13,148 nucleotides of DNA from a virus (Monodnaviria > Loebvirae > Hofneiviricota > Faserviricetes > Tubulavirales > Inoviridae), in the IMG/VR virus record IMGVR_UViG_638341089_000007. The stretch is one strand, 5' to 3'. Within the stretch, counting starts at the first letter, position 1. Every line of letters starts with the position of its first letter. The translations under genes and the position numbers were made by a program. The notes under the pieces were generated by a model that was not told the origin of the DNA, ran no database searches, and saw only the letters and a list, made by a program, of their open reading frames with translations. This document shows positions 3,749 to 4,453 of this stretch, piece after piece.

Positions 3749-4453
3749 TCATAATGCTGCGGGAGCCACGTAATAGACAATCACAAATACAGCTAATGCT
3801 CCACCTGCTCTTACCCAGTTTGATATTTTGACTTCTATAAACCCGGGTATAAATGAGACTACCCCAGCAACTGCTGCTGAAAGAATTATTCGAAAGAAAG
3901 TGTATTGAAAGTTCGTTGGATTAGGTATAAATATTGCGATTATTATAAAAAGAATAACAAGTAAAATGCCAAAGCTAAATGCCGCTATTCTCTCGTGTGC
4001 TTTTGTCAATTTTTCTTTTCCTTTATTGTCAAATCCATATACTGGCATATCTTCATTAACGAAAAGATTCCTTATTTCTTTTGCAGAACGTTTGTCATGG
4101 GCTTTTACTATCCTTTGCATTGAAGCAAAAGCAGTGGAGCTTGGTTTAATACTATTATCATTCATTACCTCTCTATATTTTTTGTAATGAGCTAAGATAA
4201 GGTGAAGAACATCAATGCATGTTTCTGCAAGCCATTGATTCCATTGAGTATTATTTAATTCATCTACTGTTCTGTTATGTGCAGCGCAGTGTTCTAAATA
4301 GCCGAAAAAACTGTCTCCACATGAATTCACGGTATCAAAATCACATTTACCAGATAGGTAACACTCTAATGACTCAGTATATTTTTCATATAAACGCTCA
4401 ATTTCTTTTTTTTGATTATCAATGATACCGTGAACATCCATATCTGATTTCAC
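3749..4453 (-). CDS. Hypothetical 234-aa protein: Cys/His-rich N-terminal soluble domain (~155 aa) plus 2-3 C-terminal transmembrane helices; prophage accessory gene
   Basis: ORF-track ORF; start ATG overlaps the stop of the upstream 91-aa ORF (TGATG); hydrophobic C-terminus (AAFSFGILLVILFIIIAIFIP, FFRIILSAAVAGVVSFIPGFI, GGALAVFVIVYYVAPAAL); AT-rich; no family recognised. Confidence 0.65.
   Translation of the reverse strand: MKSDMDVHGIIDNQKKEIERLYEKYTESLECYLSGKCDFDTVNSCGDSFFGYLEHCAAHNRTVDELNNTQWNQWLAETCIDVLHLILAHYKKYREVMNDNSIKPSSTAFASMQRIVKAHDKRSAKEIRNLFVNEDMPVYGFDNKGKEKLTKAHERIAAFSFGILLVILFIIIAIFIPNPTNFQYTFFRIILSAAVAGVVSFIPGFIEVKISNWVRAGGALAVFVIVYYVAPAAL

Follow-up and report, generated by a model that had tools for sequence, protein, structure and literature searches.

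What is the role of the last gene in the leftward operon of a filamentous prophage of E. coli? The gene lies at 3749-4453 on the minus strand of a 13,148-nucleotide (nt) stretch of DNA, here called the window, which is IMG/VR virus record IMGVR_UViG_638341089_000007 of the Inoviridae. It encodes a protein of 234 amino acids (aa), with an all-helical N-terminal domain (residues ~7-142) followed by a three-span membrane module (residues ~150-234). The gene and one to three genes for small paralogous proteins form a conserved mobile accessory cassette. We hold with moderate confidence that this cassette acts against phages, as a prophage-borne defence or exclusion system that has not been described before and whose effector is a membrane protein. 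What is new is a candidate defence system whose components are without known relatives.

Composition of the cassette

The open reading frame (ORF) of 234 codons fills positions 3749-4453 exactly. The original prediction, made from the letters of the window, had reported an ORF of this length, and we find it, on the minus strand; the plus-strand translation of the interval is full of stops. The 234-aa form starts at a GTG at 4453. Homologues begin MD(I/V)HGII, and the ATG at 4441, which gives 230 aa, is therefore the likelier start. The ORF is not a product of chance, because the N-terminal domain alone has 210 homologous clusters and the protein matches PHROG 5814 with E = 6e-144.

At all of the full-length loci examined the membrane gene follows small ORFs, between one and three of them and usually two paralogues of ~83-96 aa. 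The full-length loci come from inoviruses, P2-like phage and the chromosomes of Enterobacterales, Pseudomonas, Paraburkholderia, methanotrophs, Acidobacteria and an actinomycete metagenome-assembled genome. The small ORFs each contain the motif W-x-P-[TS], or E-P-[TS] in the upstream paralogue, and end in G-[LIV]-D-[NT]-S-[DK]-[LA]-x-x-L-L or a close variant. Forms of this ending are GLDTSKA..LL and GIDNSDL..LL, the variant outside the enterics is GIDNSDLNTLLALA, and the P2-type cassette has SVDNSDLNMLL. The membrane protein is ~230-270 aa long across the cassettes.

The immediate partner in the window is a 91-aa soluble protein encoded at 4453-4728 on the minus strand. The stop codon of this gene shares bases with the GTG at 4453 and precedes the ATG at 4441 by 9 nt, so that translational coupling with the membrane gene is possible. 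Relatives of the 91-aa protein are few, making up 8 clusters, and in the contigs checked they are accompanied by the membrane protein. The AlphaFold2 model of the 91-aa protein (pLDDT 70.6) has a small alpha/beta core, a flexible linker with pLDDT <50 and a separate C-terminal helix that carries the shared motif (GLNTSKASSLLAK). A fold search with this model was uninformative.

The C-terminus of the 91-aa protein (GLNTSKASSLLAKIQ) resembles that of the next upstream ORF. This ORF was listed mechanically as 104 aa at 4730-5044 (98 aa in PHROG 6875), a length at which it overlaps a 60-aa repressor-like gene. Dickeya, Pectobacterium and Proteus have an ORF of 46-50 aa with FAQDGLDTSKAKRLLEK, and the real gene is therefore probably a 46-aa peptide at 4730-4870 on the minus strand, which starts at Met59 of the over-extended 104-aa ORF. 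One paralogue is thus cut down to the helix alone in the enteric inovirus form, which would fit a role as a pure brake or competitor. Pfam and NCBIfam profiles revealed no enzymatic signatures among the small proteins of the operon.

The AlphaFold2 model of the membrane protein, made from a 12-sequence alignment, has a mean pLDDT of 78.7. Residues 7-142 are all-helical and mostly above pLDDT 90. A profile of this N-terminal domain retrieves 210 clusters. All 120 matches listed share the same architecture, at lengths of 223-293 aa, and in none of these 120 is the domain joined to other effectors. The motifs WxQxxAExC, MQR and PxYGF are conserved in the domain, whose invariant residues include W71, E77, C79, R114, P137, G140 and F141.

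Searches with all of the cassette proteins against Pfam, NCBIfam and PADLOC profiles returned noise only; in Pfam there was no family at E <= 0.1 apart from such noise (ENOD93, P2). The PHROGs matches are all to families of 'unknown function'. A search of PDB sequences with the family profile gave nothing below E = 0.38, and Foldseek found no match at E <= 0.001 among predicted viral structures. A structural or assembly role in the inovirus was considered and rejected. No profile or structure search placed the membrane protein in a known family of that kind.

The public copies of the membrane protein are all 'hypothetical' or have obviously spurious automated names, among them 'SH2 domain-containing protein' for the Vibrio proteolyticus homologue. 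Similarly, the 91-aa partner is named 'S-(hydroxymethyl)glutathione dehydrogenase' and the P2-type membrane protein 'allantoate permease family MFS transporter' (P0192/P0196/P0197, P0218/P0221, P0291).

Distribution in phages and chromosomes

At least three different inovirus backbones carry the cassette. It occupies the distal end of the repressor-side operon in the window phage and in two different inoviruses of Dickeya and Pectobacterium, and further IMG/VR inoviruses carry it, some with duplicated small genes. One viral contig (L011) is particularly close to the window phage, its repressor-like gene, pII and Zot being 100%, 99% and 98% identical at the amino acid level, whereas the cassette alleles are only 37-40% identical. 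This difference amounts to an allelic replacement at a fixed site. The divergent allele is accompanied by an extra ORF for a 140-aa multi-span protein (L011 5155-5577).

A two-gene version of the cassette is present in the P2-like phage P2_DC1 and in a P2-like prophage of E. coli. It lies between the tail-fibre assembly gene G and the sheath gene FI, a position that we take to be the classical Z/fun lysogenic-conversion site. Compared with the window, the P2-type membrane protein is 28% identical (E = 7e-34) and the small protein 27% identical (E = 8e-5).

The chromosomal loci form a third group. A tblastn search with enterobacterial inovirus proteins did not detect inovirus genes at the loci of Proteus, Cedecea, Paraburkholderia, many Pseudomonas, methanotrophs and others. 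At the Proteus mirabilis locus (L003) no phage genes were called within the 8-kb flanks around the cassette. The genes downstream of it (adh_short, DUF1283, DUF1161, CbiA, ROK and LysR) match those beside the Dickeya zeae inovirus (L002), which suggests that the Proteus mirabilis locus is the remnant of a dif-integrated element. One further locus (L013, NZ_WACP01000076.1, 536 nt, coverage 0.7), from an assembly of Paenibacillus tengchongensis, is 99% identical to the E. coli gene and is most likely contamination of that assembly.

The cassette is thus neither conserved along an inovirus backbone nor restricted to inoviruses: its alleles differ and it is also present in P2-like phages and chromosomes. 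The varied backbones, the carriage by P2-like phages, the chromosomal loci and the allele swap in L011 all indicate an accessory element and not a core phage function.

Defence genes near the cassette

Several known defence systems lie within ~3 kb of the cassette. These are Olokun OloA/B (L017), Gabija GajA/B (L021 and L023, which are the same island), PifA (L024) and Hachiman HamB (L026). In Proteus an nSTAND3 gene adjoins the cassette, and at L034 a HEPN_RiboL-PSP gene does so. The 81 flanking ORFs also include AbiJ, AbiTii, a KAP NTPase, the gop-beta-cII (P4) Beta protein and a MafB19 deaminase.

A known defence system is adjacent in four of ten independent loci. The binomial probability of this is ~3e-5 at a background of 2% and ~0.013 at 10%; the lower background is the published share (~2%) of E. 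coli genes that lie no more than 10 genes away from a defence gene, which comes from another data set, so the probabilities are rough. The cassette therefore co-localises recurrently with known defence systems in unrelated genomes, as the genes of defence islands do.

The three-span membrane module

Hydropathy identifies three hydrophobic segments in the C-terminal part of the protein, at residues ~156-176, 186-206 and 216-234. The AlphaFold2 model has helices at 151-175 and 181-199, a short beta-hairpin and a helix at 219-233, with pLDDT of 55-75. Two to three hydrophobic helices had been proposed here from the sequence; both methods settle on three, and association with the membrane is strongly predicted.

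The C-terminal ~85 residues are 50-60% identical to segments of proteins whose remainders are wholly different. A profile of the module alone retrieves 2,920 clusters (50% identity) at E <= 1e-3, with 1,801 at E <= 1e-10. The consensus of the module is FGVvFV...IPNPTpFQYtvFRIvLaLAAAG...PGF...RAGGALAVFVIVYFyNPA, and its invariant residues include P177, P179, G204 and A216-G218. Of 191 proteins analysed, 95 have the module no more than 40 residues from the N-terminus and 55 have it equally close to the C-terminus. The partners recognised by Pfam are TIR and CHAT domains on the N-terminal side of the module, and FGE-sulfatase, CarboxypepD_reg, TPR, HEAT and Ank on the C-terminal side; most of the domains joined to it have no Pfam family. 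No matching three-span module is described by Kaur et al. 2020.

The mean number of lysine and arginine residues is 2.61 ahead of the first span and 0.16 for loop 1, and then 1.54 for loop 2 and 0.87 behind the third span. This distribution and the positions of the partner domains support a prediction of three spans with the N-terminus inside and the C-terminus outside, the helices, the charges and fusion partners appropriate to each compartment being in agreement. With this topology, the helical N-terminal domain of the membrane protein would be cytoplasmic.

Some proteins depart from this plan. In L011 (6013-6801), L012 and L014 an extra hydrophobic helix precedes the module, which would invert the orientation of the module if it spans the membrane. 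The membrane genes of L019, L024 and L030 encode 428-488 aa, with an extension of ~200 aa after the module that is predicted to face outwards (automated ORF calls). In Vibrio coralliilyticus (L005/L006, 4346-7822) the module is followed by a C-terminal domain without known family, in a variable island where the neighbouring gene, beside a DUF3800 gene, encodes a TIR_2 protein or else an unrelated protein of 324 aa. This island looks like a small defence hotspot.

A possible mechanism and its weight

The original prediction had seen a sensor-like domain fused to a short membrane-inserting module and had likened the protein to effectors of abortive infection and to exclusion proteins. The pairing of a soluble domain with a membrane effector of this kind gains support from the context, namely the cassette itself, its place in lysogeny operons and at a moron site, the defence neighbours and the sharing of the module with TIR and CHAT proteins; the suggested metal-binding sensor does not. 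We therefore propose that the cassette protects the lysogen against other phages, in the following way.

The small proteins would dock through their shared C-terminal helix onto a conserved face of the N-terminal domain (WxQxxAExC, MQR and PxYGF). Once docked, they would restrain the membrane protein, or act as sensors by means of their variable heads. Infection would release this control and the membrane module would then oligomerise. It would depolarise or permeabilise the inner membrane, or block the entry of DNA there. Replication of the incoming phage would stop, to the benefit of the lysogen and of the resident prophage.

A bolder version can be put forward tentatively, although we think it doubtful. 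The cassette might be a tripartite immune system in which the paralogous small proteins are interchangeable sensors or brakes on a dedicated cytoplasmic domain, and the three-span module might serve bacterial conflict systems widely, as a membrane executioner or in signalling, without having been recognised as such.

Several points weigh against a defence role. The association with defence genes is indirect evidence, and the docking and pore steps are ones that we purely infer. The membrane portion of the AlphaFold2 model is only moderately confident, and the four-helix variants do not fit a single fixed topology. PADLOC-DB v2.0.0 has no model for any component; its only matches, to Csx27 at E = 0.006 along the hydrophobic part and to Cas8b at E = 0.023, are not meaningful. 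Fold searches with the cassette proteins gave generic helical matches only. P2 hotspots and dif-adjacent islands also bear cargo that is not for defence, for example partition systems and toxins (PMC9122126 for the P2/P4 hotspots).

The P2-like phage P2_DC1, which carries the two-gene cassette, was isolated by Rousset et al. 2022 (PMC9122126), who challenged lysogens of four P2-like isolates with a panel of eight phages and reported protection only for AC1. The lack of any report of protection by the DC1 lysogen also counts against a defence role, though only weakly, being a matter of omission. The cassette goes unmentioned in the main texts of the DefensePredictor and P2/P4 hotspot papers. 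Neither the cassette nor the membrane module is described in the accessible literature, and searches by accession were also empty.

Alternative explanations

The alternative that survives best is a toxin-antitoxin (TA) or addiction module, in which the membrane protein would be a membrane-damaging toxin and the small proteins antitoxins, stabilising the prophage or its replicative form. One or more small genes followed by an overlapping larger gene is the typical order of type II and type IV TA systems, inoviruses carry many TA pairs (PMC6813254), and YpfPhi, a filamentous phage related to CUS-1, has been described as an unstable episome (PMC4266046). There are also TA-like neighbours, a HEPN_RiboL-PSP gene with a helix-turn-helix gene and an AbiE-type AAA_21 gene. 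However, Pfam, NCBIfam and PADLOC show no similarity to known toxin or antitoxin families, and at 230 aa, with its large conserved cytoplasmic domain, the membrane protein does not resemble the small membrane toxins. Several small paralogues with variable N-terminal domains resemble adaptors or sensors more than a single antitoxin, and stable chromosomal islands carry the cassette as well. We regard an addiction module as unlikely. TA and abortive-infection roles are compatible, so that this explanation is partly a special case of the defence role.

As a protein of the inner membrane whose gene is in the repressor-side operon of a prophage, the membrane protein might instead exclude superinfecting phages without killing the cell, by blocking entry machinery such as TolQRA, the phosphotransferase system or the insertion of the tape measure. 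Inovirus genes that exclude other phages are known (PMC6813254), and divergent alleles in one backbone could reflect specificity. Exclusion that acts on the entry route of a single phage is disfavoured because the cassette also occurs in phylogenetically remote bacteria and in islands without detected phage genes. It also leaves unexplained why cytoplasmic small partners are needed and why the module is fused to TIR and CHAT enzymes. Pure entry exclusion is in our judgement unlikely.

The cassette could also be a lysogenic-conversion or host-fitness factor unrelated to phages, which modulates stress, the envelope or virulence. A modest benefit in vivo has been reported for CUS-1 and YpfPhi, whose end-located ORFs are without assigned function (PMC4266046), and the cassette is found in genomes of the extraintestinal pathogenic E. 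coli type. The family is, however, spread through soil and water bacteria (Pseudomonas, Methylobacter and Paraburkholderia), its neighbourhoods are of the defence type and not of the virulence type, and the virulence phenotype of CUS-1 maps to puvA, a receptor-binding virion protein (PMC4266046). We consider this explanation improbable. The membrane-protein gene was itself considered as puvA, an identity that was rejected, PMC4266046 giving that name to the virion protein and not to this gene.

The least probable explanation by far is that the N-terminal domain is a metal-binding sensor, as had been suggested from a cysteine/histidine cluster (ECYLSGKCDFDTVNSCGDSFFGYLEHCAAH, residues 30-59): the E. 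coli protein does have five cysteines, four of them within residues 31-56, and seven histidines, but the cluster is not conserved and a metal-binding role is therefore rejected. C31, C45, H55, C56 and H59 are freely substituted among 12 homologues, most of them even in close ones, and C37 is kept in nine of the 12; a conserved set of three or four ligands is absent, the only invariant cysteine in a 15-sequence alignment of the domain being C79, within WxQxxAExC. Pfam gives no match to a zinc-binding or other metal-binding family, and AlphaFold2 places the residues on the long helices of a helical bundle and not in a knuckle or ribbon.

The operon and the prophage

The membrane-protein gene is the last of four ORFs in a leftward operon. 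The first is a 60-aa gene at 4986-5168 (minus strand, PHROG 2503), which is at the position of the RstR-like repressor of YpfPhi and CUS-1 and is outside the cassette proper. A sigma-70-like promoter match, ATGATA-16-TATACT, lies upstream of the operon at 5202-5229 on the minus strand. The gene order and strand fit encoding in a prophage repressor operon; the promoter-like site is a consensus match only. The operon ends in a terminator-like hairpin at 3682-3721 on the minus strand, with a G+C-rich stem of 17 bp followed by UUUUC. Its folding energy is -31.4 kcal/mol (z = -5.5), and none of 200 shuffled sequences was equally stable, which bears out the earlier description of a terminal gene followed by a strong hairpin.

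The window begins in the E. coli chromosome and continues into the prophage. The host part (1-3573) contains a bestrophin-like gene, tam, hipB and hipA. The prophage proteins match the G2P replication protein, G5P, a coat protein, a pIII-like protein rich in Gly and Ser, Zot/pI and a secretin. Beside hipBA the prophage forms a head-to-tail tandem with a unit of 8299 nt. Positions 3650-4849 and 11949-13148 are 100% identical, and the window ends inside the second copy of the prophage. Because of the tandem the membrane-protein gene is present twice, its second identical copy being at 12048-12752 on the minus strand. The 91-aa partner gene is likewise repeated identically in the second unit, at 12752-13027 (minus strand), and the second peptide gene (from 13029) is cut by the end of the window. 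The second copy of the terminator-like hairpin is placed at 11981-12020 (minus strand) by means of the 8299-nt offset.

The junction of host and prophage, just downstream of the cassette, contains a dif-like site (GGTGCGCATAATGTACGACTCGTTATGT, 3652-3679, plus strand) whose XerC arm is identical to that of E. coli dif. A second hybrid dif-like site lies at 11951-11978. These hybrid sites fit the family of CUS-1 and YpfPhi, which integrate at dif in a XerC/D-dependent manner (PMC4266046). CUS-1 and YpfPhi are evidently absent from the phage collection that we searched with megablast, which gave no match for the window phage.

In CUS-1 the genes on the attL side, orf1 and orf1a, are described as being of unknown function and without database homologues (Derbise and Carniel 2014, PMC4266046). 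The same review calls the attL-side ORFs of CUS-1 and YpfPhi (YPO2271/YPO2272 in the latter) 'unrelated', the other 7.1 kb of the two phages being 99% identical, so that the attL-side position is variable between them. By position, the membrane-protein gene and its 91-aa neighbour appear to correspond to orf1 and orf1a, a correspondence that we infer from the description of the map and not from comparison of the sequences. In view of the 37-40% identical allele that L011 carries in a CUS-1-type backbone, YPO2271 and YPO2272 might be divergent homologues of the cassette genes.

At the other end of the prophage an ORF of 77 aa at 11679-11912 (plus strand) has two CxxC pairs (CDRC...CQHC), a more convincing zinc-ribbon-like set of cysteines than that of the membrane protein. 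Beside it is an ORF of 102 aa at 11253-11561 (plus strand); both match only PHROGs of 'unknown function', and their probable counterparts are the YPO2280a/YPO2281-like ORFs in the YpfPhi review (PMC4266046). A 20-nt inverted repeat at 11179-11227, 90% complementary and with a 9-nt spacer, extends over the final bases of the secretin gene (end 11183) and is probably the terminator of the rightward morphogenesis operon.

Implications

If the cassette is a defence or exclusion system, the bacterial immune repertoire would gain an unannotated family, whose specific domain has at least 210 clusters, and beyond it would stand a far larger membrane module, so far uncharacterised, that recurs with TIR and CHAT enzymes. 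The small filamentous prophages that integrate at dif in pathogenic E. coli, and probably relatives such as YpfPhi, would bear swappable immunity cargo next to the attachment site, as the P2/P4 hotspots do. On the bolder version above, phages of the CUS-1/YpfPhi type would be vectors of defence genes, which could contribute to their reported fitness effects. It would also provide a testable function for orf1 and orf1a of CUS-1, which have been listed as unknown since the first description of this phage.

Comparison with known systems

The transmembrane (TM) effectors of CBASS, Pycsar and Thoeris, those of the SLATT type, and the TIR and TM system of the P2-like phage AC1 also have a compact conserved multi-span module that is joined to many soluble domains, including TIR, and that occurs in defence neighbourhoods. 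The cassette differs from these in having no match to SLATT or any other TM effector of Pfam or PADLOC, and no nucleotide cyclase or other signal-generating enzyme. Its module can be at either end of a protein, with domains of the outside type on the C-terminal side.

PfsE of phage Pf4 is a peptide of ~30 aa that acts on PilC. The cassette is comparable to such exclusion and TA cargo of inoviruses (Pf4 PfsE; Roux et al. 2019, PMC6813254) in being accessory cargo of filamentous prophages near the repressor or att end that is likely to affect co-infecting phages. It has no homology to PfsE or to the described inovirus TA families, and unlike them it is also present in tailed phages and chromosomal islands. 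With orf1 and orf1a of CUS-1 it shares, in position only, the attL-adjacent end downstream of an RstR-like gene.

Like the morons of P2 (Z/fun, tin and old), the two-gene cassette at the G-FI (Z/fun) site is short, variable and transcribed against the tail genes, but it shows no homology to fun, tin or old. The hotspot of P2-like phages that was analysed systematically in PMC9122126 is gpA-gpQ, and the cassette is instead at G-FI.

Like the RexA/RexB system of phage lambda, the cassette is prophage-encoded; its gene order and strand would fit a repressor-side operon, from which it would presumably be expressed in the lysogen. Both systems consist of one or more soluble proteins and a multi-span inner-membrane protein. 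The proposed outcome would also be the same, a depolarisation of the membrane that aborts the infection. The cassette differs in having no sequence or profile similarity to these proteins (no Pfam match at E <= 0.1). Its membrane protein is predicted to have three spans, as opposed to four, and has a large cytoplasmic domain of its own, and its soluble partners are paralogues of 46-100 aa that share a C-terminal helix. The TM effectors of defence systems and the cargo of the P2/P4 hotspots are functional analogues in a more general way. Every test of homology was negative, so that membership of the cassette in any of these families is not supported, and lambda RexAB may be regarded as its nearest functional analogue.

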